Positions 2,599 to 64,000 of a DNA stretch of 64,000 nucleotides are shown one piece after another. Under the pieces are notes generated by a model, which worked only from the letters and a program-made list of their open reading frames with translations, had not been told where the DNA came from and made no database searches. Source of the DNA: Candidatus Sedimenticola sp. (ex Thyasira tokunagai). Its GTDB lineage: Bacteria > Pseudomonadota > Gammaproteobacteria > Chromatiales > Chromatiaceae. The position numbers were made by a program, and so were the translations under genes. The stretch is from assembly GCA_037318855.1 (NCBI GenBank), contig CP134874.1, positions 184,598 through 248,597 of the forward strand, written 5' to 3'. Each line of letters opens with the position of its first letter. Within the stretch, counting starts at the first letter, position 1.

Positions 2599-3492
2599 TC
2601 AACGCCGGTTTGAACGACGGAACTGACCAATGACAATAATGACAAGGCCCGCCAATAGGATAATACCAACCATTAGAGCAAGGGGATGACTAAACCAGGC
2701 CGATTGATCATACAGAGAATATTTCGCCAACCATTGATCTTGAATTTCCCGGATGGTCCCATTCTGATGCAACGAATCAATTGCTCTGTTAATTTTATCT
2801 AGCAGGGCCGGATTTCCTTTGCGCAGTGCAATCGCTATTTCCTTAGATGCCAGCGTCCATGCAACAGGGACGATGCCCTGGGCACCATGTTTTTGTATCT
2901 GGTACTGCCCCGTCAATCGATTCGTTGCGAGTGCATCAATATCCCCTTTCAGCAGCTTTCCGATACCATCCAGATCGTCCTTAATGATAACCAGGGTAAT
3001 GGACGGGTGGTCTTGCGATAGTTTCTGAAACGGAAAGCCACCCTTGGTTAGGCCGACTTTTATGCCGGACAAGGCCTCAGGGGTGATGCGCTCTTCATCC
3101 CCGGCATTCACGAACAGTGTGAATTCTACATCCAACGTGGGGTGGCTAAAATCGTATTTCAGCTTCCGATCAGGCGTTGCGGACATTAAGGCGTGCCCGT
3201 CAGCTTTCCCCACCTGAACCAATTCCTGGGCCTTCGACCACTGCATTAAGCGGTGGGTAGCGTTCAGACCGGCCTCTTTCGTGATGGCGGCTAAAACGTC
3301 GACTACCAGCCCCTTTGGCTGCCCCTCTTCTAGGAACTCATAGGGGGGATACTGTCGATCACCCAGAATCAATACGGGTTCACTATTATTCGTTTGCCCA
3401 TGCGCCTTCGGCATGAAGGCAAAATTACTGAATGATATAAAGAGTAGGGTGAAAATCAGTACCCAGTCGGGTACTTTTATGATGCGAATCAT
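2599..3492 (-). CDS. Extracellular solute-binding (PBPb, family 3) protein with C-terminal membrane anchor
   Basis: Signal peptide, [10 protein letters not shown]...GLVVDV and [16 protein letters not shown] motifs, C-terminal hydrophobic helix. Confidence 0.85.
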
Positions 3493-4012
3493 ATTCTACT
3501 TCCTGTAAGTATTCAGGCAGCCAGAATGTGGTTCGATGAAGGAGAAGCCAAATCACACACTTATGCCATGGTAGTTACTTTAAGTGTAGTCGAGAAAATA
3601 TCAGACCCTGCAACTAACGTTTCTTTATCTTTTGATGTTGATTTTACATCAAAATATTAGTTTGCGACTGATGGCACAGATGCACTGCCAATGGACCCCG
3701 TCAGATCACTTGATACTGATGCAGGTCCACAGGCAATAAATATAATCCTGATAATATCGGTGTCGGCGTGACCGACTCAAAGGAGGCTCAGCCTGGCACC
3801 AATCTACTCCTGAAGAATTCAACCATGATGGTACATCAGAAAATGAGGTATTAGCCGTTCTCGGCTTCAGTCTGACCATGCGGTAAATGACCCGTAATGT
3901 CTCCTAAGTGCTGGTAACCGACTCAGTCATTCGCACTCTTGTTGAATTGCACCGAATACTGACCCGGGATTTGCACCGAAAAGTGACCCACCCTGATTAG
4001 TCAGATTATTAA

Positions 4013-4793
4013 CTATTTTCTGTTAGTTTTGCCAGTTATTCCCTCCCTGTTGCAGGTTGAATGTTTCAAGCGGTAGCTCTCATTGCCTGTCTCGATGATG
4101 TGGCAATGATGAGTCAGTCGGTCAAGCAGCGCTGTGGTCAACTTTGCATCACTAAATACATTTGGCCATTCCGAGAAGCTCAGATTAGTTGTGATAATGA
4201 TGCTGGTCTTTTCATAAAGTTTGCTGATCAGATGGAACAGCAAGGCACCTCCTGCTTGGCTGAACGGGAGATATCCCAGTTCATCTAGTATCACCAAGTC
4301 CGTATGGATCAGCCGATTGGCTAGTCGGCCGGGTTTGCCGATCAACTTCTCCTGCTCCAGATCGTTGACCAGTTCGATGGTGGAGAGAAAGCGTACGCGG
4401 TAGCGATGATGCTGGATGGCCTGTACACCGATTGCAGTTGCCAGGTGTGTTTTGCCAGTACCCGGGCCACCGACCAACACCACATTCTGTGCATCCTCGG
4501 TAAACTCACAGCGATGCAGCGCCCGGATCAGCGGTTCATCCACGGCACTCTGAGCAAAGTCAAAGCCGGTGAGGTCACGATAGGCCGGGAACCGTGCCGC
4601 CTTCATCTGGTATTTTAGTGAGCGTACATCCCGGTTCTGCTACTTCAGCCTTGATCAGGGTGTCCAGTATGTCCTGTGCTTGCTGAAAGGCCGGTGAGGC
4701 TTGTTCGCCCAAATCAGCTACCGCATCAGCCATGCCAAACAGCTTCATCTGCTTCATGGTCTGGATTATGGCATCAGTGTTCATGGCGACCAC
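4013..4793 (-). pseudogene. istB: IstB ATPase, frameshifted
   Basis: Walker A GGPGTGKT and Walker B ILDELG; split into 4575-4793 and 4013-4606 by one extra base near 4632 (EVAE|[13 protein letters not shown]). Confidence 0.9.
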
Positions 4794-53834: not shown

Positions 53835-55637
53835 ATGCTGAAAAAAATATTTTTACCTACCATCTTTTTAATTCTGATCTACGGATTCTGGGTCAGTCCT
53901 GATTTCAAGGAGATTGCGGCCGGCGTGTCCGTCTTCCTGTTCGGCATGCTGTCGCTGGAAGAGGGTTTCAAGGCGTTTACCGGCGGGGCACTGGAAAAGC
54001 TGCTGCGAAAGACGACCGACAAGCTGTGGAAGAGCGTGGCATTTGGCGTGGTCTCCACGACGGTAATGCAATCCAGTTCACTGGTGTCGGTGATTACCAT
54101 CTCATTCTTGAGTGCCGGGCTTATTGGTCTGGCGGCAGGGATTGGAATCATATTCGGTGCAAACCTGGGCACCACCACCGGTGCCTGGCTGGTGGCGGGT
54201 TTTGGTTTGAAGGTAAAGATCTCCGCTTATGCCATGCCGATGCTGGTATTTGGCATCATCCTGATTTTCCAGAAAGCAAAATCACTCAAGGGCATTGGCT
54301 ATATTCTTGCCGGTCTCGGCTTTCTGTTCCTTGGAATCCACTATATGAAAGAGGGGTTCGAGGCGTTTAAGGACAGCATCAACCTGGCGGAATACGCGGT
54401 CAGTGGTTATGGCGGCGTCTTCCTATTTGCCACTATCGGCATACTCTCTACTGTGGTTATGCAATCAAGTCACGCCACGTTGGTGTTGACCATTACGGCC
54501 CTGGCGGCAGGGCAGATTACCTACGAGAATGCACTTGGTTTGGCGATCGGTGCCAACGTGGGCACAACCATTACAGCCATTATCGGTTCAATGAGCGCAA
54601 ATGAGCAGGGCAAGCGTTTAGCCGGTGCGCACTTGATCTTTAACATGACCACAGGGCTTATCGCCATTGCGTTCATTTTTCAGTTGATGGGGATAGTGGA
54701 CAGGGTCAGTGCAGGGGTGGGCATTGCAGCAGATGATTACACGCTGAAGTTAGCCGTTTTTCATACCATATTTAATTTAATTGGCGTCAGCGTTATGCTG
54801 CCTTTTACCAACCCAATGGTGAATTTCCTTGAGAGCTATATCAAAGCGAAGCCCGTGGATATCTCCGAACCTAGGTACTTGGACGATTCGGCCCTCGATT
54901 TCCCGGATACTGCAGTAGAAGCCCTGCGTAAGGAGACGCTGCATGCATTCGATAATTCTGTGGATATTATAACTAGAGGGTTGGGGTTCCCTCGTGAAGC
55001 CATCTCCCCGGATACTGACCTTGAAGCCTATCTCAAGGCGCAGAAAAAACCGCTGACGTGCAATATAGATGACAGCTATCGGAGAAAGGTTAAAACCCTC
55101 TACAACGCTATTATCGCTTTTGTCAGCAAGGCATCGTTCACCTGGGAAATGGATCAGTCTGAAGCACTGCACTGGTTCCGAAATGCCACCAGGGATATGG
55201 TCCAGGCGTTGAAGGATATCAAGCATATGCAGGATAATATGCAGCGTTACCTGGTATCTGAAAACGAAGATATACGTGCAGAGTACAACGCAATGCGGCT
55301 GGAGATTGGACTCACCCTGCAAGAGCTGGAAAAGATTCGTGAGTATGATGATCCAGAACACGCAGCGACTACTCTGCAGGCCCTGAAGCTATCACTGCAT
55401 GATACCGATACTGAGTTCAATGATGTGTCGGTACGCATGATCAGTAAAGGCTCCATTACACCTGAGATGGGCACATCTCTTATGAATGACAGTGCCTATA
55501 CTCATGATGTAATAAGAAATCTTATTGAGGTAGGTGAAACAATTTTCGTTGCACGTGCTCAGGATGTGAGTGAAGAGCAGCGAAAGATTTTACTTGGCGA
55601 AGATGAAATGAGCGATAACCTTGATGAAGTGATCTAA
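53835..55637 (+). CDS. Na/Pi cotransporter family protein with PhoU-like C-terminus
   Basis: Two QSS/GAN-GTT repeats (MQSSSLV..GANLGTT; MQSSHAT..GANVGTT). Confidence 0.9.
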   Translation: MLKKIFLPTIFLILIYGFWVSPDFKEIAAGVSVFLFGMLSLEEGFKAFTGGALEKLLRKTTDKLWKSVAFGVVSTTVMQSSSLVSVITISFLSAGLIGLAAGIGIIFGANLGTTTGAWLVAGFGLKVKISAYAMPMLVFGIILIFQKAKSLKGIGYILAGLGFLFLGIHYMKEGFEAFKDSINLAEYAVSGYGGVFLFATIGILSTVVMQSSHATLVLTITALAAGQITYENALGLAIGANVGTTITAIIGSMSANEQGKRLAGAHLIFNMTTGLIAIAFIFQLMGIVDRVSAGVGIAADDYTLKLAVFHTIFNLIGVSVMLPFTNPMVNFLESYIKAKPVDISEPRYLDDSALDFPDTAVEALRKETLHAFDNSVDIITRGLGFPREAISPDTDLEAYLKAQKKPLTCNIDDSYRRKVKTLYNAIIAFVSKASFTWEMDQSEALHWFRNATRDMVQALKDIKHMQDNMQRYLVSENEDIRAEYNAMRLEIGLTLQELEKIREYDDPEHAATTLQALKLSLHDTDTEFNDVSVRMISKGSITPEMGTSLMNDSAYTHDVIRNLIEVGETIFVARAQDVSEEQRKILLGEDEMSDNLDEVI

Positions 55638-55717
55638 CAAATCATCAGCAGATGCCTTGAGTCAAGACCTATTCAGAGGTGCGCAAAGAGGCTGAGTATT
55701 TAGATGGAAACTCTGAC

Positions 55718-55951
55718 ATGAATACGAAGAAAATAGTTAAAAAACTGGGCGATTTTTTTTCCATGAAACGGAGTAAGCAGAAGAAGCGCAAAGCAAAGGT
55801 TGAACAAATACTCGCCAAGCTTAATAAAAGAGAGAAGGAGCTTGAAAAGTTGCTTAAGAAAAAGATGGATGGGCGAAAACAGAAGCAATTAAAGAATGAA
55901 ATCAAAGTGCTGAAAAAGCAGAAAGAGAAGGCGAAAAAATTACTTCGCTGA
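55718..55951 (+). CDS. Small Lys-rich coiled-coil hypothetical protein
   Basis: 77-aa ORF from ATG 55718, very basic, downstream of the Na/Pi transporter. Confidence 0.65.
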   Translation: MNTKKIVKKLGDFFSMKRSKQKKRKAKVEQILAKLNKREKELEKLLKKKMDGRKQKQLKNEIKVLKKQKEKAKKLLR

Positions 55952-56051
55952 GATCACCGTATTTTATCGAGACGGCACCAGGTAGTCTCAGAGCAAGTAA
56001 TATGCAGCACTTAATGAATCCAGACCTGTGCGAGTGATAACCAGTAGACTA

Positions 56052-57437
56052 TCAAGTACCCAAAGCATCCAACGGACTTGCAACCCCCAATCCCCCCTTT
56101 TTGGTCACGTGAGTGTAGATCATAGTGGTGGCCACATCAGAGTGGCCCAATAGCTCCTGTACGGTACGAATATCTGAGCCTGATTCAAGTAGATGGGTGG
56201 CGAAGGAGTGCCTGAAGGTATGGCTGGTGACTCTTTTAGTAATTCCAGCTTCAGCTGAGGCCTTTTTGACTGCTTTTTGGATAACCGAAGGGTGAATATG
56301 GTGGCGGCGCATAATACCGCTGCGTGGGTCTTGGGCAATGCGACTGGCCGGGAAGAGATATTGCCAGCGTAGCTCCCTCTCTGCATTGGGATATTTACGT
56401 GACAGGGCTTCAGGTATCATCACGCGGCCAAAGCCATCCTGCAGATCTTTATCATGCTTCAGTTTTACCCAAGCCATCTGTTTCTGCAGTATATCGACCA
56501 TCACTTGCGGCATGGGAACAACGCGGTCTTTTTTGCCTTTAGCCATACGGATATTGATCTGCTTGTAGGCAAAGTCCAAATCCATAATGCGCAGACGAAC
56601 GCACTCCATAACCCGCATACCTGTCCCGTACATCAGGCAGATCATGAGCTTCTTCATCCCCTCTATATGAGAGAAAACCTGCTCAACCTCTTTGGGGCTC
56701 AGCACAGTGGGAATACGCCTGGGGTGTTTAGGGCGCCTAAAGGGGCCGATATCACCAAGCGGAGTCTCCAAAACACGGGCATACAGAAAGACCAGTGCAT
56801 TCAACGCCAAACTCTGGGTTGCACCCGAAACCTTGCGTTGCACGGCCAAATACTCTAAAAAGGAAGCAACTTCTCGCTCAGCGCAGCCTTGAGGAAGCGC
56901 ATTTTTATGAAATCGAAGGAAGCGATTGATCCAGTGCAAGTAAGTTTGCTCGGTACTGATGGAGTAGTCAGGTATTCGCGCTGCCGCAAGATATTTACGA
57001 AAAACGTCAGGATAATGTCTTGCGAGATCATTCTTGGGATTGCTCACCGCCTTATCAATCATCTCATAGGTTCTGGCCACAGTAGGGTGATCATTTCCGA
57101 GAGGCTGAGCACCAGACGACCAGTAGTCCCAGTCAAAATCTTTTGCCCAGGGTATCTTCAACAGGTGGCAATAGAGGAGCCGCAGCGCATCCACCCGCTG
57201 TCGATATTGCCAGGTGGAAAGTGCAGCATTGCGGCCCATGAGGTTAAACCACCGCTGCAGATTATCGGGAGTCTGCCCTTTCAGACGTGTATTCGGATGG
57301 GCATCAATGTACGCCTGTACATGTCGTCGGTACCATGGAAGCGCCTTATCCGGTACCCGAAACAACTGAACAACCTCAAGATACTGCTCCCAGAACACCG
57401 TGATATGGGGATCTTCACTCTCACTCATCGAATTCAT
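56052..57437 (-). CDS. intI: Integron integrase IntI with N-terminal extension (461 aa)
   Basis: YGTGMR, KGKKDR, HTFRHSFATHL, LGHSDVATTMIYTHV, plus the IntI-specific insert ALSRKYPNAERELRWQYLFPA. Confidence 0.96.
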   Translation of the reverse strand: MNSMSESEDPHITVFWEQYLEVVQLFRVPDKALPWYRRHVQAYIDAHPNTRLKGQTPDNLQRWFNLMGRNAALSTWQYRQRVDALRLLYCHLLKIPWAKDFDWDYWSSGAQPLGNDHPTVARTYEMIDKAVSNPKNDLARHYPDVFRKYLAAARIPDYSISTEQTYLHWINRFLRFHKNALPQGCAEREVASFLEYLAVQRKVSGATQSLALNALVFLYARVLETPLGDIGPFRRPKHPRRIPTVLSPKEVEQVFSHIEGMKKLMICLMYGTGMRVMECVRLRIMDLDFAYKQINIRMAKGKKDRVVPMPQVMVDILQKQMAWVKLKHDKDLQDGFGRVMIPEALSRKYPNAERELRWQYLFPASRIAQDPRSGIMRRHHIHPSVIQKAVKKASAEAGITKRVTSHTFRHSFATHLLESGSDIRTVQELLGHSDVATTMIYTHVTKKGGLGVASPLDALGT

Positions 57438-57481
57438 GACATGAACTCCATTTCAAATCAACTAATAGAGAACAAGAGTAG

Positions 57482-57561
57482 AACGTTTGGCGGGTTATGT
57501 CAACGAACGTGCCAGCGGGTTATGTCAGAAAACGTGCCGGCAATATAATCAGCTGTTATAC
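57482..57561 (+). other. Integron attI site
   Basis: Ends in G|TTATAC (57555), divergent from intI; preceded by three ~24-bp-period direct repeats. Confidence 0.8.
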
Positions 57562-57786
57562 CGAAGGGGTTTCTTCCAGTTCCCAAAAGCTATCCACTTC
57601 GGTCAGTATGTCCTCTGTGTCACCAATAAAGTGGCTGTGCTCGTCACCATATTGAACGGTCAGCATCCAAAAGCCACCATTCACGTACCCGCTAGGGGTA
57701 GGCTGGCTGCTTCTGTCAAACTTCAGGGTAACAATCTCAAGCCCTTGTTCTTTACATGCTGCCGTTATCTTTTTCTGCTGCTCATA
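57556..57786 (-). pseudogene. Cassette 1 antisense ORF (~76 aa if one A is added to an A5 run)
   Basis: GAGG RBS + ATG AGC AGC AGA AAA AGA TAA; one extra A gives MSSRKKITAACKEQGLE...ETPSV, whose stop is the TTA of the attI core. Track GTG start 57849 lies inside attC1. Confidence 0.55.
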
Positions 57787-57795
57787 AATGCCTCG

Positions 57796-57881
57796 GTATA
57801 ACCAGTCAGCCCAACCGACCGGGGTAAGTGTCGCGCCTTTCTCTGGCACCTAGTGCCGGTCGGCTGGCTTCATCGTTAGGC
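57796..57881 (+). other. attC site 1 (86 bp, intact)
   Basis: R'' GTATAAC complements cassette start GTTATAC; arms CCAACCGACCGG / CCGGTCGGCTGG; R' GTTAGGC. Confidence 0.88.
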
Positions 57882-57893
57882 AAAAGGAAGTCT

Positions 57894-58412
57894 ATGAACT
57901 TTAGAATAAAATTTGGCTGGGCAACCACAGGAATTTGGGTATCTCTCTGGGCAGTATTTTTATATTTTGACTGGGAGTCTGCCAGCAAAATGGCATTCAA
58001 TGAATGGGGAGACTTTTTTGCAGGCGCATCAGCACCTCTTGCCTTTTTATGGCTTGTGATAGGTTATTTTCAGCAAGGAGAGGAGCTTGGTCAAAATACT
58101 AAGGCACTTGAACAACAAGAAAGAGCATTACAGCTTCAAGTAGATGAGCTTAAACAATCTGTAGAGCAACAAAACAAATCAGCTATTGCGCTAGGCAGAC
58201 AATCTGAAATTGCTGGGTTAATGGCTCGCCTTGACTCTACTAACCACATATTAGGTAGCTTAGAACGCCAAAAAGATAGAGTTACTAAATCAGATAATGT
58301 TGACACTGCAAAAAATATAAAACAAATTACGAAAAAACAGCAAAAGTATGAAACTGCTGTAGAAAAATTATTGGAAGAAATAGAAGCCCTAGTGGAGGAA
58401 TACAGTGACTGA
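57894..58412 (+). CDS. Cassette 2 ORF A: two TM helices + coiled coil, hypothetical
   Basis: NEWGDFFAGASAPLAFLWLVIGYFQQGEEL; AT-rich; starts 13 nt after R'. Confidence 0.8.
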   Translation: MNFRIKFGWATTGIWVSLWAVFLYFDWESASKMAFNEWGDFFAGASAPLAFLWLVIGYFQQGEELGQNTKALEQQERALQLQVDELKQSVEQQNKSAIALGRQSEIAGLMARLDSTNHILGSLERQKDRVTKSDNVDTAKNIKQITKKQQKYETAVEKLLEEIEALVEEYSD

Positions 58413-58692
58413 TTTGAATAGTAATATTCGTAAAAAAGCATATGGCATTATGAAGTCAATTGAGGTAATGAACGAAAAGGAAAGGATGCAACGCCCTTCA
58501 GAGTCATTTGGTGTTAATTACAATAAATTAAGGGCAATATGCCTTAGGAATAATCCAGACTTAGAAGAACTTTTACCTCCTGAAGTAAAAATTGAAAATT
58601 ATGGGTTCGATGGTGCTACAGACAAACTTACTGAGCATAATTTCTCTGAAATACATACTTTTTGCTCAGAAATAAATCAATTACTAGAATAG
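58405..58692 (+). CDS. Cassette 2 ORF B: hypothetical protein
   Basis: 95 aa, 8-bp overlap with ORF A, stop just before attC2. Confidence 0.75.
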   Translation: MTDLNSNIRKKAYGIMKSIEVMNEKERMQRPSESFGVNYNKLRAICLRNNPDLEELLPPEVKIENYGFDGATDKLTEHNFSEIHTFCSEINQLLE

Positions 58693-58694
58693 TT

Positions 58695-58784
58695 GCCTAA
58701 AAAAATGCACTCGGAAAGTCAAAAGCTACACTCCTCGTACCTCGTCGCTACGCTTTTGCCTTCCGGTGATTTTGGCTGTTAGAA
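58695..58784 (+). other. attC site 2, R'' box damaged
   Basis: GCCTAAA where GCCTAAC is expected (complement of GTTAGGC); arms CACTCGGAA.G.CAAAAGC / GCTTTTGCCTTCCGGTG; R' GTTAGAA. Confidence 0.8.
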
Positions 58785-58803
58785 GGCAAGAAGGAGGTAT
58801 TGG

Positions 58804-59419
58804 ATGATGAATCATAGAATGCCATCAGACCCACATTTGAGACGATGGATGATGTTTGTTGATGGCGAAAACTTTACTATTAGGGGACAACAATTCTGTA
58901 GTAAAAATAATATATCCCTATCAGGTGATAAATATTGGAAGAAAAATATTTACATGTGGATGCCAGGACCGAAAGCTAATGAATTGTTTTTTAATTCTGA
59001 CGAGGCAAACTTGGGATCTGCAATATTTGGGAGAAAGAGCATTTTACTATACTTCATTGACAGGTAGTTTAGAGGATAAAAATTCAGTTGAAGAGAGTCT
59101 TCATAATTTGGGCTTTAACCCAAAAGTATTTCTGAAAACTAGACAAGAAGAAAAATCAAAAGGTGTAGATGTTCACTTGACTACTGATATTTTGTCGAAT
59201 GCATATCTCAATAATTATGATGTTGCTCTTATTGTAACTGGAGATGCTGATTTTATACCTGCGATAGAAGAAGTTAAACGTTTGGGTAAAATTGTCTATG
59301 TTTGTTTTTTCACAGGAAAGGAAAACGGTCTTAGTCCTCGGTTATCATTGACATCAGATAAGAATATTAACATTACGGGGTTGTTTGAAAAGGTATGGCG
59401 AGAATGGAAGTCTTCGTAA
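58804..59419 (+). pseudogene. Cassette 3: NYN (PIN-like, LabA/DUF88) nuclease, one frameshift
   Basis: FVDGEN in frame 1; EKSKGVDVHL and VTGDADFIPAIE in frame 2; strong AAGGAGG RBS. Confidence 0.85.
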
Positions 59420-59452
59420 GCTGCCTTCTAACAAGACCAATAAACTAGGAGA

Positions 59453-60742
59453 GGGAGTGTTAGAAATTCTGTGTCATTTCAGTAAAATTAGCAAAAATAG
59501 GAATGACACATGTCTGAACAATTCGATTTCAATAAAGCCCTGGCTGCCTTGCAGAACGGTCAAGACCTGACTGGCAAGAATGGCATCCTTACTCCACTCA
59601 TCAAGCAACTGACAGAAGCAGCTCTCAAGGCTGAACTGGAGTCACATCTCGCGCTTGATGAAGCATCAAATCGTAAGAACGGCTCCAGCAGGAAAACGAT
59701 CAAGTCAACGTCAGGAAGCTTCGATCTGGACACCCCCAGAGACCGTGCAGGCTCCTTTGAGCCACAACTGATCAAGAAGCACCAGACCCACCTGACTGAT
59801 GAGATTGAGCGCAAGATTATCTCCATGTTTGGCCTGGGAATGAGCTACCAGGATATCGCCTCACATGTTGCTGAACTCTACGGTCTGAGCATCTCCAACG
59901 CACTGATCAGCAGTGTAACTGACAAGCTCATCCCCGAGCTGAAGCAGTGGCAACAGCGCCCTCTGGAGAGCCATTACCCATTTGTCTGGCTGGATGCCAT
60001 CCACTACAAGGTCAAAGAGGATGGACGCTATGGCAGCAAGGCCGTCTACACCGTGCTGGGCCTGAACCTGGAGGGCAAGAAGGAGATACTCGGCCTCTAT
60101 CTCTGAAAGTGAAGGAGCTAACTTTTGGCTATCGGTACTGACTGATCTCAGTAATCGCGGTATAGAGGATATCCTGATTGCCTCTGTCGATGGACTGAAA
60201 GGCTTTCCAGAGGCCATTAACAGCATCTTTCCTGATACAGAGGTTCAGCTCTGCGTGATACACCAGATCCGCAACTCGATGAAGTACGTTGCCTCTAAGA
60301 ATCAGAAAGCCTTTATGGCCGATCTAAAGCCCGTCTACAAGGCAGTGAACAAGGAGGCGGCAGAGGCGGCGCTGGGCGAGCTGGAGAGTCGCTGGGGCGC
60401 CCAGTACCCAATCGTACTCAAGTCGTGGCGCAGCAAGTGGGAAAATCTATCTGTCTACTTCAAATACCCTGCGGACATCCGTCGCGTGGTTTACACCACC
60501 AATGCCATTGAGGCTGTACATCGGCAGTTCCGTAAGCTGACCAAAACCAAGGGCCTTCCCGAATGAAAACAGCCTCATGAAGCTGCTCTATATGGGAATC
60601 CAGAATGCTTCAAAGAAATGGACCATGCCGATTCAGAACTGGAATTTGACTCTGTCCCAGTTGTCGATATATTTTGAAGGCCGGTTAGATGGCGTTTTGG
60701 ATATTTAACCGATTAGGCTGACACAGAATTCTGAACGCCCTC
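59453..60742 (+). mobile_element. IS256-family insertion sequence, 1290 bp
   Basis: IRs GGGAGTGTTAGAAATTCTGTGTCA / GAGGGCGTTCAGAATTCTGTGTCA; 8-bp flanks CTAGGAGA / CTAGGACA. Confidence 0.92.
59510..60708 (+). pseudogene. IS256 (Mutator) transposase, two 2-nt deletions
   Basis: VWLDAIHYKV, SVDGLKGF, QLCVIHQIRNS, YTTNAIEA in successive frames. Confidence 0.9.
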
Positions 60743-60958
60743 CTAGGACATTTTAAAGCGTGGTTTCTTTTGTGTAATTACGCTACGATATCATTCTACA
60801 CAATAGAAACTACGCTTTAAAATGCCTGTTATTGGCGACGTTGATGTAAGCTCGGTATTTTTGAGCTTTGATCTCAGTTGATTGTATTAGCCAATTCTTA
60901 CTGCCTACTTGGTCGCACTGCTGGCCCATTGATCTGACACTGAATGTCAGATCAGGTC

Positions 60959-61150
60959 TTAGTTACTACAGCTCATGCCGTGCTCAGCGAATTCCTTAAT
61001 GGCTTCTTCTGGCCATCCCACGCGCCCTTTGCTAATCGGTATCTTCTTGGGAAATTCACCTTTCGCCTCCTGGCGGTAAATGGTTGCCCGGCTTAACCCC
61101 GTTATCTCAATAACTTGCTTGATATTCAGTATTTTTTTCATATCTCTCAT
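60959..61150 (-). CDS. AlpA-family transcriptional regulator (antisense, cassette 4)
   Basis: KQVIEITGLSRATIYR...GEFPKKIPI...RVGW. Confidence 0.9.
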   Translation of the reverse strand: MRDMKKILNIKQVIEITGLSRATIYRQEAKGEFPKKIPISKGRVGWPEEAIKEFAEHGMSCSN

Positions 61151-61208
61151 GCCTAACTAGTTGCTGTTTCTGACCTCGCTGCGCTCGGCAGCAAAGCTAG
61201 TTCGTTAG
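61151..61208 (+). other. attC site 4 (short, ~60 bp) interrupted in R' by a group II intron
   Basis: GCCTAAC-TAGTT-GCTGTTTC-TGACC..GGCA-GCAAAGC-TAGTTC-GTTA; unpaired bases lie on the left arm, giving + orientation. Confidence 0.8.
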
Positions 61209-62312
61209 CGCGCCAAGCGAAGCTTGGTGCATCTTGCAGGGTGAAAGTCCCTGTCGGGTAAGGATTAGCCACCCACCCGTATTGAGTGTTGCGCTTGTGG
61301 CGGAGTGCGGGGAGAGCAAGCGCTTTCCAGTTACTGGATGACTATCCACTGACCACCGCATGAACAAAACAGGTGAAGCGTACACAGCGAATCGTATAGG
61401 CCATAGGGTGTCCGCGCACCTGAGAGCTGGAATCGCCTCGACATAAATAACTGTTCCGAGTGATGAGAGCTGTAACGTACTCGAAATCCAAGTGAAGCAA
61501 CCGAGTTGGCAAGGTTGTGGAGACTCGGCGGGGTTCTCAAGCTGTGGCATGTACGAAGAGATGTATCGAGAACTTGGGAGACCCTAATGGTTCCCGGCAA
61601 AGTGCCGGGTAGGGAAGCCAAGCCGAAAGGTGAGGCGCTGCTGGTAAGGTATGCAGATGATTTTGTCTGTGCGTTTCGCTACCGAGAGGACGCGGAGCGA
61701 TTTTACCGGACACTGCCGAAACGATTGGGTAAGTTTGGATTGGAGCTATCACCAGAGAAGACCCGGTTAATACGATTCAGTCGTTTCCATCCCGGTGGAA
61801 AACGGCGGATCTGTTTTTGGGCTTTGAACTGTACTGGGGGCATGATCGCCAAAGGCGACCTCGCCTACACCGGAGAACGGCAAAGAAGAAGTTGGTGCAG
61901 GCGGTCAAAGGGATGGGGAGTGGATTAAGCAGTTTCGCCACCTCCCACTGGCTGACTTCCGCATTGCACTGAATCGCCGCCTCCGGGGGCACTATCAATA
62001 CTTTGGATTGATAGGTAACAGTCGGCAGGTATGGCTTTACTACAAGGAAGTGATCGAACGTGTTTATAAGTGGCTGAACAGGCGAAGCCAAAGACGGAGC
62101 TACACTTGGGTGGGGTTAAATGAGATGCTGAGGCAACAGGGAATCCTGAAGCCGGAAGTAAGGAAGCTTAACTTCCCCAGGACATACCTGATATATGAAT
62201 AGGGACTCCAGCATTGCGCGGGAGTGAGTATTACTGAGGAGCCGGATGCGGTAGTACCGCACGTCCGGATCTGCATGGGGGCGCTTTGGGTAACCGGGCG
62301 TCCTACCATTAC
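61208..62312 (+). mobile_element. Group II intron A (IIB, class E-like), internally deleted for RT0-4
   Basis: 5' GCGCGCC...GGGTGAAAGTCCC, domain I end GAACTTGGGAGACCC, RT remnant LVRYADDF..LSPEKTRLIRF..WLNRRSQR, DV GAGCCGGATGCGGTAGTACCGCACGTCCGGATC (62239-62271), 3' CTACCATTAC. Confidence 0.88.
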
Positions 62313-62528
62313 GTTCGCTGGTTTATGCGTAAGCACAAAGCGATTAGGCGCAGTAAAATGCGTGCGATGGCGCTTTTTGCCCGATGCATGAAGGAAAGCC
62401 CCGGTTTGTTTGTTCACTGGCGTGAGGGGATGAAAGGTGCGTATGCTTGATGGGAGCGGTATGAGCGGAGACGTTCACGTACCGTTCTGCGAGAGGCTGA
62501 GGGTGAGAGTCCCTTGGTCTACTCTCCT
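62313..62528 (+). mobile_element. 3' fragment of a second group II intron B (class D-like maturase tail + DV/DVI)
   Basis: VRWFMRKHK...PGLFVHW..stop at 62450; DV GAGCGGTATGAGCGGAGACGTTCACGTACCGTTC at 62454; DVI ending CTACTCTCCT. Confidence 0.82.
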
Positions 62529-62549
62529 CCCAAAATCTTTCACTAGGTT

Positions 62550-62960
62550 GAAACTCACTTGGTCACCCACGAGCTCCTCGGGAGGCCCTTGCGGCTACGA
62601 TAGGACGCCACGGTACTTGGCCAGCAACCGATCAATATCAGCATTCCACAGCGCCCACGACTCCTTCGGGAGGCCCTTGCGGGTACGATAGGTCGACACA
62701 GTAGATGAGCGCTCGATACCCAGCATCCGAGCAATCTCAGGATTCGTCATCGACTGCCATTGCTCGTCGGTTACAGAATCCCAGTCATACTTGGTCGCCT
62801 TCGGGGCGCTCGGGAGGCCCTTGCGGGTACGATAGGTCGACACAGCAGATGAGCCCTCGATACCCAGCATCCGAGCAATCTCAGGATTCGTCATCGACTG
62901 CCATTGCTCGTCGGTTACAGAACTCCAGTCATGCTTCGCCCTTACGGGGGGTTTATTCAT
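62550..62960 (-). CDS. Tandem HTH-like repeat protein (two 48-aa repeats plus a frameshifted third)
   Basis: 144-bp DNA repeat; NPEIARMLGI..STVSTYRTRKGLP twice; third VASYRSRKGLP out of frame. Confidence 0.65.
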
Positions 62961-63104
62961 ATTTGGGCACTTTCCTCAAAACCGGTAACCCTATCTTTTT
63001 CACGAGGATGTGCCAGATAAGGTCTGAACTAATACAATACAGTCAGGCGAATTGCTTGCCAAAGGGTTCTCTCTATTCGAGTTATCCACCCCTATCCAAG
63101 CGAG

Positions 63105-63243
63105 CGCTGCCAGCCATGGAGAGCGAAGCGAAGGAGTAGCTCCTCTGTAATAATCCAACCCGTTACAGCAACTTCCACCACCCAAAAGTGATTTATTCTG
63201 AATCGGTTTCAGTCGCTGCCAGCCATGGAGAGCGAAGCGAAGG
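63105..63243 (+). repeat. Two perfect 30-bp direct repeats
   Basis: CGCTGCCAGCCATGGAGAGCGAAGCGAAGG at 63105 and 63214. Confidence 0.9.
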
Positions 63244-63496
63244 CTGGTAATCCCCGGTAGCCGTGAGGCCGCACTGCTTACCCGTCGTGCGCGTAGCGCG
63301 CCAGAGGGGAAGCAAAGTAGGCATCCGAACACGGCGTCCAGTCACTGGGAACTGACTGCGAAGCGGTAACGAGCTTGCGATGTTATCGCGTAGCGGTCAG
63401 TGACCAGGACGGCCGGGGCACTAATAGGCTGTCAAAGATTGAGTGCAAAAGGGGGACTTGGATGTCCTGTTTTGCATCACGAAATCGAAGACTCGC

Positions 63497-63907
63497 TTAT
63501 TCGTTTTCGTTTTTTGCTGCTTCCTCTGCTGCCTTCTTGTTGTTTTTCACGGCTTTTCTAAGCGCCCCTTGCAGAGACCTGATGCTGGCTCTTACTTTCT
63601 CGACCTGCTCGTCTGAGACCACCTGTCCTACCTCCAGGGCCTCGGTGATCCGATCCACAGTATAGTGGGCATGATTAACAGCCATCGCGCGACTATGGGC
63701 CTTCTCTTTGTCTTTCTGGTCTGTCAGCCAGCCCTCGACCTGGGCGGCCTCTTCATCGGTCAGGTGCTCGCGCACATGGGCTGGGATTGAAGTATTCCCG
63801 GTCGGGAACCCAGCGATCATTTTTTGAGTGCTGCGCTTCTTCTCCGGGAGATAGATAGAGCGGAGAAGCTGAACCCTTGAGCCTTTAACCTTGATTTGTA
63901 TAGTCAT
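63497..63907 (-). CDS. Hypothetical protein of mobile-element type
   Basis: 136-aa ORF with AAAGG RBS (RVQLLRSIYLPEKKRS); function not recognised. Confidence 0.7.
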   Translation of the reverse strand: MTIQIKVKGSRVQLLRSIYLPEKKRSTQKMIAGFPTGNTSIPAHVREHLTDEEAAQVEGWLTDQKDKEKAHSRAMAVNHAHYTVDRITEALEVGQVVSDEQVEKVRASIRSLQGALRKAVKNNKKAAEEAAKNENE

Positions 63908-64000
63908 ACCCTTTTATGAAAATTCGTCATACTCATATAATAAATGACCAGACGTATCCTATCAAGAGTTGTCGTCATTGCATTATCTGGTTGCTGGTCA

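Follow-up and report, generated by a model that had tools for sequence, protein, structure and literature searches.

Integron cassette arrays are a main route of gene capture in bacteria, and the only introns previously known to target their attC sites are those of class IIC-attC, which do so from the noncoding side. These group II introns insert in the bottom strand, in the orientation opposite to that of the cassettes (PMC3001079). The described members (S.ma.I2, Ge.s.I1, and UHB.F1) home at a GTT-containing box that forms the 3' end of a hairpin on their own strand, use this attC hairpin together with a short intron-binding site (IBS1), have no second exon-binding site (EBS2), and encode a protein without an endonuclease domain. 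Here, we describe an intron whose lineage shares the features just listed for these members, in a stretch of 64,000 nt (hereafter, the window) from Candidatus Sedimenticola sp. (ex Thyasira tokunagai) (GCA_037318855.1, CP134874.1:184,598-248,597, forward strand). It differs in that its lineage uses the top strand, in the direction of the cassettes, encodes a protein only 24-33% identical to that of a IIC-attC intron (UHB.F1), and has a domain V and an alpha' element of the IIE type.

Class E introns or intron fragments co-oriented with cassettes have been noted before in integrons or in clusters of attC sites lacking an integrase (CALIN), and one report speculated on the upstream hairpin (PMC7923331, PMC9229058). 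Among them are H.ha.F1 and H.ha.F2, from a CALIN of Halorhodospira halochloris (Sonbol and Siam 2021, PMC7923331), which were placed in bacterial class E by the authors' phylogeny. They belong to the same protein lineage as the window's intron (54% identity), share the domain V block GCGG GAAAA CCGC and a 3' end reading ...CCGUGAG, run with the cassettes, and have an attC-like hairpin upstream. Unlike the copies analysed here, they are 5'-truncated; their authors could define neither a 5' splice site nor an EBS1 nor a point of insertion, and proposed no target for the lineage as a whole. The IIE introns Cl.be.I2, Ch.ph.I2-1, and Sy.wo.I1-1 (PMC3753933) are alike in their domain V, with a loop of 5 nt, in having alpha' in a DId3 terminal loop, in the small size of the ribozyme (450-700 nt), and in an EBS1-IBS1 pairing, which is essential in those that were characterised; their EBS2-IBS2 pairing is evident and their homing sites are ordinary, whereas the present clade has no detectable EBS2-IBS2 and a near-invariant EBS1 aimed at attC. 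Single introns of other classes were found in cassette orientation at or after an attC's top strand, with no conserved pairing to the R' core reported. The IS1111-attC elements are also attC-specific and mobile, but they are DNA transposons and recognise the site through protein. These elements are mentioned in a study that reported a class E intron in the integron of Shewanella saliphila JCM 32304 (Nunez et al., PMC9229058); this integron is one of our loci (L073) and has a divergent intI just upstream of the intron. In the literature that we searched, no paper delimits the class E attC lineage or defines its target or its EBS1. Homing of this kind had so far been no more than hinted at.

It is likely that the segment 61208-62312 is a copy of a class E (IIE) group II intron inserted in the top strand of the attC closing a cassette with an alpA-like gene, between the fourth and fifth bases of the R' box (GTTA|GGN), and that the target is read by pairing between EBS1 and IBS1. 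We further think it likely that this copy represents a large and widespread class E clade (Gammaproteobacteria, Desulfobacterota, Chloroflexota, Planctomycetota, and more than 90 exact metagenome matches to its first 26 bases) that evolved attC homing independently of IIC-attC. Such a clade would enter the top strand at GTTA|RRY with a near-invariant EBS1 and no EBS2, be expressed from cassette promoters and spliced from cassette mRNA, reuse occupied sites, and have produced nested derivatives and derivatives with a deleted open reading frame (ORF).

Relatives were retrieved in two scans, one of a collection with one genome per species, using the window's protein remnant as a query (80 loci), and one of metagenomes, using the first 26 bases of the intron (91 exact matches, 80 of which were fetched). 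The 5' exons of 127 copies were tallied (47 from genomes and 80 from metagenomes), and 89 of them end in CGTTA (32/47 and 57/80), for which the chance rate is 1 in 1024. Variants follow the same pattern: 41 of the 47 genome exons end in [CG]GTT[AGC], with positions -6 and beyond variable, and 15 metagenome exons in addition to the 57 read NGTT[AG]. A sequence-only reading of the window had pointed to TAACG at 61473-61477, in the loop of a domain I hairpin, as the complement of the exon CGTTA, and the relatives bear it out. In the domain I alignment, this block is UAACG wherever the exon is CGTTA, and it changes together with the exon in the other copies (exon/EBS1 combinations CGTTC/GAACG, CGTTG/CAACG, GGTTA/UAACC and UAACU, ACATG/CAUGU, and ATAGAT/AUCUAU). 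The consensus fold of 20 diverse relatives, computed with RNAalifold, retains two hairpins, the first being that of EBS1, whose loop holds the TAACG block, and the other lying after it, with compensatory changes in 19 of 26 predicted pairs. No convincing EBS2/IBS2 had been seen in the window, and a permutation test of domain I against exon positions -16 to -6 also found no cognate excess: the longest complementarity is 5.0 for cognate and 4.8 for noncognate combinations in the internal loop, and 6.9 and 7.1, respectively, in the whole of domain I. Depending on the subgroup, the 3' exon starts with G, A, or U. This first base pairs with the alignment column at 61536 in 27 of 39 copies, a count that is confounded with subgroup and fails in the A subgroup; by its tracking of the G and U subgroups, this column is a probable EBS3. 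The intron's 5' end varies. All 80 metagenome loci start with GCGCG because the search pattern demanded it, and positions 1-5 of the genome loci read UCGCG (18), GUGCG (15), GAGCG (4), or GCGCG (3), the GUGYG start being absent in most members.

The occupied sites resemble attC sites much more often than expected from ordinary CGTTA sites. The rule that we used for an attC-like site had two parts: (a) an RYYYAAC-like box 35-150 nt upstream, paired with the GTT in the minimum-energy fold, and (b) at most three mismatches to R' and a fold of at least 0.25 kcal/mol per nt. The 3' exon of the metagenome sites lies mostly off the contig, and GGC was assumed there. Of the occupied sites, 53 of 91 (58%) passed the rule (20 of the 33 genome sites ending in GTT and 33 of the 58 from metagenomes), compared with 6 of the 61 CGTTA sites (10%) in the first 55 kb of the window, an ordinary chromosomal stretch taken as a control (p 5e-10). 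The joined exons of the relatives give GTTAGGC, GTTAAGC, and similar cores, with the insertion point at GTTA|RRY. This agrees with the homing to a conserved cGTTA core of integron sites that had been proposed from the window. For instance, a full-length copy in a metagenome-assembled genome of Sedimenticolaceae (locus L001, positions 2711-4686) lies within a long attC, on the strand of all neighbouring ORFs, and its joined exons read GAACGTTA|GGCGAAA, i.e., GTTAGGC. Many sites start with YTAACAA and end with GGGCGTTA, a pattern similar to that of Vibrio-type repeats (VCR) in the usual orientation.

Upstream of the intron, the larger ORFs share its strand in 30 of 37 genome loci and 48 of 53 metagenome loci (78:12 overall), as do the downstream ORFs in 24 of 37, often with a Shine-Dalgarno sequence and an ATG a few bases past the 3' exon. 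Paralogous attC copies within the loci numbered only nine and were of little use to call the strand. Some loci have peculiar arrangements. Three metagenome contigs (L104, L109, and L156) carry tandem introns, in which the last bases of one intron (...CCUACCACGAC) serve as the 5' exon of another. Since the intron starts with G, the preferred 3' exon base of the subgroup, CGTTA|G is still present at a site once it is occupied, and tandem copies therefore fit the reuse of occupied sites. In L152 (and also in L126), the intron starts at 2827, after a CCGTTA without an attC-like hairpin, and a divergent intI-like gene (29% identity) begins 235 nt away; the insertion is possibly in an attI core.

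The protein and the RNA both point to class E. We compared the intron-encoded protein with those of H.ha.F1/F2, UHB.F1 (IIC-attC), and UHB.I2 (CL1), taken from the supplement of PMC7923331. The remnant encoded in the window matches H.ha.F2 with 190 bits (54% identity), compared with 24 bits (24%) for UHB.F1 and 39 bits for UHB.I2. The protein of L001, which is intact (432 aa) and has RVT_1 as its only domain, without an endonuclease domain, is 33% identical to that of UHB.F1 (165 bits), and with both queries, remnant and L001, the class E fragments give 54% and 190-219 bits over half the length. The L001 protein is equidistant from the solved IIA, IIB, and IIC reverse transcriptases (RTs), which score 136-153 bits alike. 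Two features mark IIE/IIF introns, namely a domain V loop of 5 nt and an alpha' motif that caps the DId3 stem-loop (Nagy et al., PMC3753933). The first is found as a 13-nt block (GCGG, 5 nt, CCGC; 4+5+4) in 36 of 36 pattern-matching copies among the 45 examined, and the other 9 show it on inspection by eye. As for the second, the alpha' loop of the hairpin at 61495-61521 pairs with alpha (GCCA) in a loop near 61268-61272, with matched variants in the relatives (alpha/alpha' GCCA/UGGC, ACCA/UGGU, ACUCA/UGAGU, and ACCAA/UUGGU). The Rfam model group-II-D1D4-6 (RF02005) matches all 12 loci scanned (the attC-homing copies and three with other exons), and the ribozyme of L001 without the ORF is 677 nt long (2711-3277 and 4577-4686). 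Overall, the assignment of the lineage to class E (IIE), first suggested, as class E/IIB, by the look of the RT motifs and of the domain I end, is supported by pairwise similarity to two published fragments and by RNA hallmarks. A search of the PLSDB plasmids with the full-length protein gave nothing above 43% identity; hence, the lineage is absent from this plasmid collection.

The window carries a shortened copy of this intron, which we call intron 1. It matches RF02005 at 61244-61543 (85 bits) and the domain V-VI model RF00029 at 62237-62312, with a candidate branch A at 62305 in domain VI. The alignment with the full-length copy L001:2711-4686 is 94% and 91% identical on the two sides of an 858-nt gap, and the missing part includes RT0-4 as well as the start codon. 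In the RNA, domains I-III, V, and VI are intact, and the copy is a nonautonomous derivative. The ORF of the protein remnant becomes continuous when a T is put back after 61813 and a G after 61914. These positions end a T5 run (61809-61813) and a G4 run (61911-61914), each of which is one base longer in every short-read contig of six public runs from the same or sister strains. The two frameshifts are thus probably assembly errors, and similar homopolymer errors should be expected elsewhere in this assembly. Single-copy read depth is about 480 in run X1 and about 1200 in X2, two runs whose reads show no mismatch to a housekeeping stretch. Relative to this baseline, we estimated about 5-11 copies of the intron body per genome, 4.5-6.4 of the deleted form and 1.25-4.7 of the full-length form. 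Both forms are multi-copy in the reads of one strain, and several distinct flanks in the reads end in CGTTA. The multi-copy state, the diverse CGTTA flanks, and the full-length copies indicate that the lineage is active, or was so recently, in the source organism.

The orientation of the array shows that the plus strand of the window is the top strand. The integrase gene intI, on the minus strand, lies to the left of three plus-oriented sites (attC1 to attC3), and the intron is in the fourth (Table 1); the intron-free allele and the recurring cassette ends described below concur, in agreement with the top-strand insertion proposed earlier. The fourth site, attC4, reads GCCTAAC (61151-61157)...CTAGTTCGTTA on the plus strand, with its last base at 61207 (also read as ...CAGCAAAGCTAGTTCGTTA at 61207). 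The intron follows directly on the same strand, as had been claimed, but the boundary then given was one base off, since G61208 is the first base of the intron. The latter starts with GCGCGCCAAGCG... (GCGCG, GCGCGCC) and ends with ...CCUACCAUUAC at 62312. The junction between attC4 and the intron is confirmed by independent contigs from three runs. In a public run, a contig matches 60839-61208 after a different attC end (...GGTGAGCTTGGT) and continues with GAGTTTTACAATTCC... The segment common to the two contexts ends at the G|TT crossover points (60840/60841 and 61204/61205) and therefore looks like a mobile cassette. The joined sequence, ...CGTTAG|GAGTTTT, gives R' as GTTAGGA, without the intron. 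The run is of RNA, so this contig may be either an empty site or a spliced transcript. Whichever it is, it fixes the exon junction at CGTTA|GG. The boxes of attC4 (GCCTAAC, and GTTA plus GGA in the intron-free allele) agree with the RYYYAAC/GTTRRRY consensus at 6 of 7 positions and are complementary at 6 of 7. The claim that 61151-61208 is an attC thus holds as regards position, as it closes a mobile cassette after three attC sites near intI, and is less secure as regards its hairpin, which is weak.

These data suggest how the intron would recognise its site. The UAACG in the terminal loop of the DId hairpin pairs with the IBS1 CGTTA, without an EBS2-IBS2 pairing, and the first base of the 3' exon (G in the subgroup of the window) would probably pair with a single EBS3 base. 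Five or six paired bases are too few to account for the restriction to attC, and the folded or single-stranded top strand of the attC may therefore contribute. It would act like the upstream hairpin of IIC introns, in a state arising on the lagging-strand template. Since the protein combines RT and X domains with the lack of an endonuclease domain, we expect replication-dependent priming. The intron runs with the cassettes and should therefore be transcribed along with them and splice from cassette mRNA, unlike IIC-attC introns. Since the insertion cuts the 7-bp R box to 4 bp, IntI should be hindered at attC4.

Several observations weigh against this interpretation. As DNA, the attC4 hairpin (61148-61208) folds at -7.3 kcal/mol with a z of -0.1, like shuffled sequences. 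Its 12-bp stem with a 2-nt bulge pairs the inner GTT (61200-61202) and leaves CGTTAG as a tail, so that the site fails the strict rule on the pairing of AAC with the outer GTT, and its longer arm is the 3' one. The alpA-like ORF runs against its own cassette, a few copies of the intron (L013, L054, and L071) have other exons, and the attC-like rule excludes about 40% of the occupied sites. In the window, the plus strand has a positive GC skew, which is weakly in line with a lagging-strand template, the class assignment draws on two published fragments and on RNA hallmarks, and what we propose for the hairpin, for replication, and for the blocking of IntI is inferred. Part of this would fit an ordinary IIC-attC intron in the bottom strand, opposite to the cassettes, with the minus strand as the top strand of attC4, which was our initial reading, helped by a likeness of the 5' end to the IIC intron of O. 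iheyensis. The alpA-like ORF is on the minus strand and adjoins GCCTAAC, the minus-strand GTTAGGC followed by ATG resembles the start of a cassette, the hairpin has its extra bases in the arm adjoining the intron, the RNA is compact, and there is no EBS2. We rejected this reading as highly improbable given the plus orientation of the array, the cassette ends, which fit this orientation only, the low identity with the IIC-attC protein, the IIE-type domain V and alpha', and the orientation of upstream ORFs in the relatives. It is also unlikely, if less so, that the intron homes to any accessible CGTTA|N without recognising a hairpin, the association with attC being a by-product of the over-representation of CGTTA at attC ends and of the tolerance of integrons to insertions. 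The short pairing (5-7 bases), the failing sites, the insertion near an intI-like gene at a CCGTTA without a hairpin, the reuse of occupied sites in tandem copies, and a likely nested copy in the ORF of another intron all speak for such a loose requirement. It does not explain why none of the 61 CGTTA sites in the first 55 kb is occupied, why attC-like sites are so much rarer among them than among the occupied ones, or why the strand bias relative to genes is so strong.

The right half of the locus raises a separate question, as the intron is followed by a fragment of another, unrelated intron (intron 2), and the exon junction of the window copy itself therefore cannot be rebuilt, a further point against our interpretation. 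Intron 1 may have been mis-joined at a repeated intron to the intron 2 tail and the high-copy repeats beyond it, in which case the real attC4 copy would continue with the rest of R' and the next cassette. This is a possibility to be taken seriously, even if we find it somewhat doubtful. The 62312/62313 and deletion junctions share a multi-copy depth (the former at about 4-6 copies per genome, the same depth as the deleted form), most such copies agree with one another, but not with the window, in at least four bases upstream of CGTTA, the two homopolymer indels are absent from all reads, and no contig connects attC4 to the intron 2 tail. The confirmed junction between attC4 and the intron 5' end stands apart from this, and a real recombination of two co-oriented intron copies would look alike. 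The window copy may thus be such a recombinant or a mis-join at the repeat, the 5' junction being unaffected in both cases. Our best guess is a nested arrangement, in which a subfamily of intron 2 contains the deleted intron and carries it along as it spreads. Here, the uninterrupted intron 2 reads ...AAG ACC TTG GTT CGC TGG..., and the synonymous ...AAG ACG TTA GTT CGC TGG would create CGTTA|G. Such nesting would predict a 5' flank ...AAGACGTTA inside intron 2. A scan of metagenomes for the junction of introns 1 and 2 found no match.

If the class E clade is indeed specialised on the top strand of attC, homing to these sites arose at least twice, which provides a natural test of what draws a retroelement without EBS2 to a folded DNA site. 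It predicts effects on cassette expression, where the intron would be spliceable from cassette transcripts and not polar, and on cassette mobility, through the split R box. The combination of CGTTA|G/U-N-GCG, RF02005, and a 5-nt domain V loop gives an annotation signature for RT genes of integrons that are now unnamed, and the short invariant guide could serve as a tool to target integron sites.

Table 1. Position of the integron and intron features in the window.
Feature	Position	Strand	Evidence and details
intI, integron integrase	56052..57017	-	TIGR02249, 442 bits (cut-off 265); Pfam Phage_integrase, Phage_int_SAM_4
attC1	57796..57881	+	Sequence, imperfect palindrome; ends CGTTAGGC at 57874-57881
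attC2 (GCCTAAA...GTTAGAA)	58695..58784	+	Sequence; DNA fold z -2.5 (+ strand), -3.5 (- strand)
attC3 (TTCTAAC...CGTTGATG)	59426..60846	+	Sequence; CGTTGATG at 60839-60846; 28-nt inverted repeat 60749-60824
alpA cassette	60841..61204	+	From TT of attC3 R' to G of attC4 R'
attC4, 5' exon of the intron	61151..61207	+	R'' GCCTAAC (61151-61157); R' GTTA, cut after fourth base; IBS1 CGTTA 61203-61207
Intron 1, group II, class E (IIE-like), internally deleted	61208..62312	+	Rfam; match to L001:2711-4686
DId hairpin with EBS1	61462..61488	+	GAUGAG...CUCGAAAUC; UAACG (61473-61477) in loop; covariation of stem and of loop with exon
alpha' hairpin	61495..61521	+	UGGC in terminal loop; stem covaries
Intron-encoded protein remnant (RT5-7 and X domain)	61587..62202	+	ORF of 205 aa from ATG 61587, two bases restored
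Deletion junction	61626..61636	+	858 nt missing between 11-nt direct repeats AAAGGCGAGGC of full-length L001
Domains V and VI	62239..62312	+	RF00029; domain V 62239-62271, 33 nt, 4-bp upper helix, 5-nt loop UAGUA
Intron 2 tail (3' 215 nt: protein C-terminus and domains V-VI)	62313..62527	+	RF00029, 57 bits, 62452-62527

The start codon of intI is uncertain, and the longest ORF extends to 57437. The first and third sites had been described as ending in CGTTA and CGTTG, respectively, and this is how we read them (CGTTAGGC and CGTTGATG). The end of attC1 is a perfect target for the intron and yet is unoccupied; it is followed by a Shine-Dalgarno sequence and an ATG (57894). The attC2 is of the type of the intron-bearing attC in L001. 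The attC3 is interrupted by an insertion sequence of the IS256 family (59451-60742, transposase NF033543) with CTAGGA direct repeats on either side. The transposase is split into two ORFs (59510-60106 and 60255-60566) as read in the window, and the element corresponds to a 1294-nt unitig ending at 60742 with about 10 times the single-copy depth. A strict scan of the window for RYYYAAC...GTTRRRY recovered none of its attC sites, a relaxed scan based on folds was too noisy to use, and a search for a family of attC repeats in 55000-64000 found none because the four sites are of different types.

The alpA-like ORF (60959-61150, minus strand; Pfam Phage_AlpA, E 1.4e-13) runs opposite to its own cassette, and its start codon touches the R'' box, so that any promoter of alpA would need to lie within the attC or within the intron's 5' end. 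An exact-protein look-up of AlpA matched no record.

Uninterrupted copies of intron 2 read ...AATAAGACCTTG before the position that corresponds to 62313. The protein, whose C-terminus reads ...VRWFMRKHK...FVHW, shows no more than 34% identity with the references for IIC-attC, CL1, and class E. Locus L059 contains a relative (1-1426), which stops 26 nt before the CGTTA of an attC carrying a class E intron, and an RF01999 intron of the same locus (4625-4793) seems to begin, with GTGCGCC near 4672, midway along a Vibrio-type attC. We may have here a second lineage targeting the top strand of attC. The sequence past 62527 shows no branching in the reads. We considered 62528-62554 as the 3' half of another attC and rejected it, because this stretch belongs to a high-copy repeat. 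Farther on, 63105-63134 and 63214-63243 are identical 30-nt direct repeats, followed by a GC-rich stretch with long hairpins (63260-63430); 63105-63430 had no Rfam match at E <=1. The region 62616-62950 (ORF 62595-62960, minus strand) consists of 144-nt direct repeats encoding a repeated helix-turn-helix motif, with a depth of 40000-110000 in DNA and RNA runs of the same strain, compared with about 480 for single-copy DNA, i.e., about 100-200 copies.

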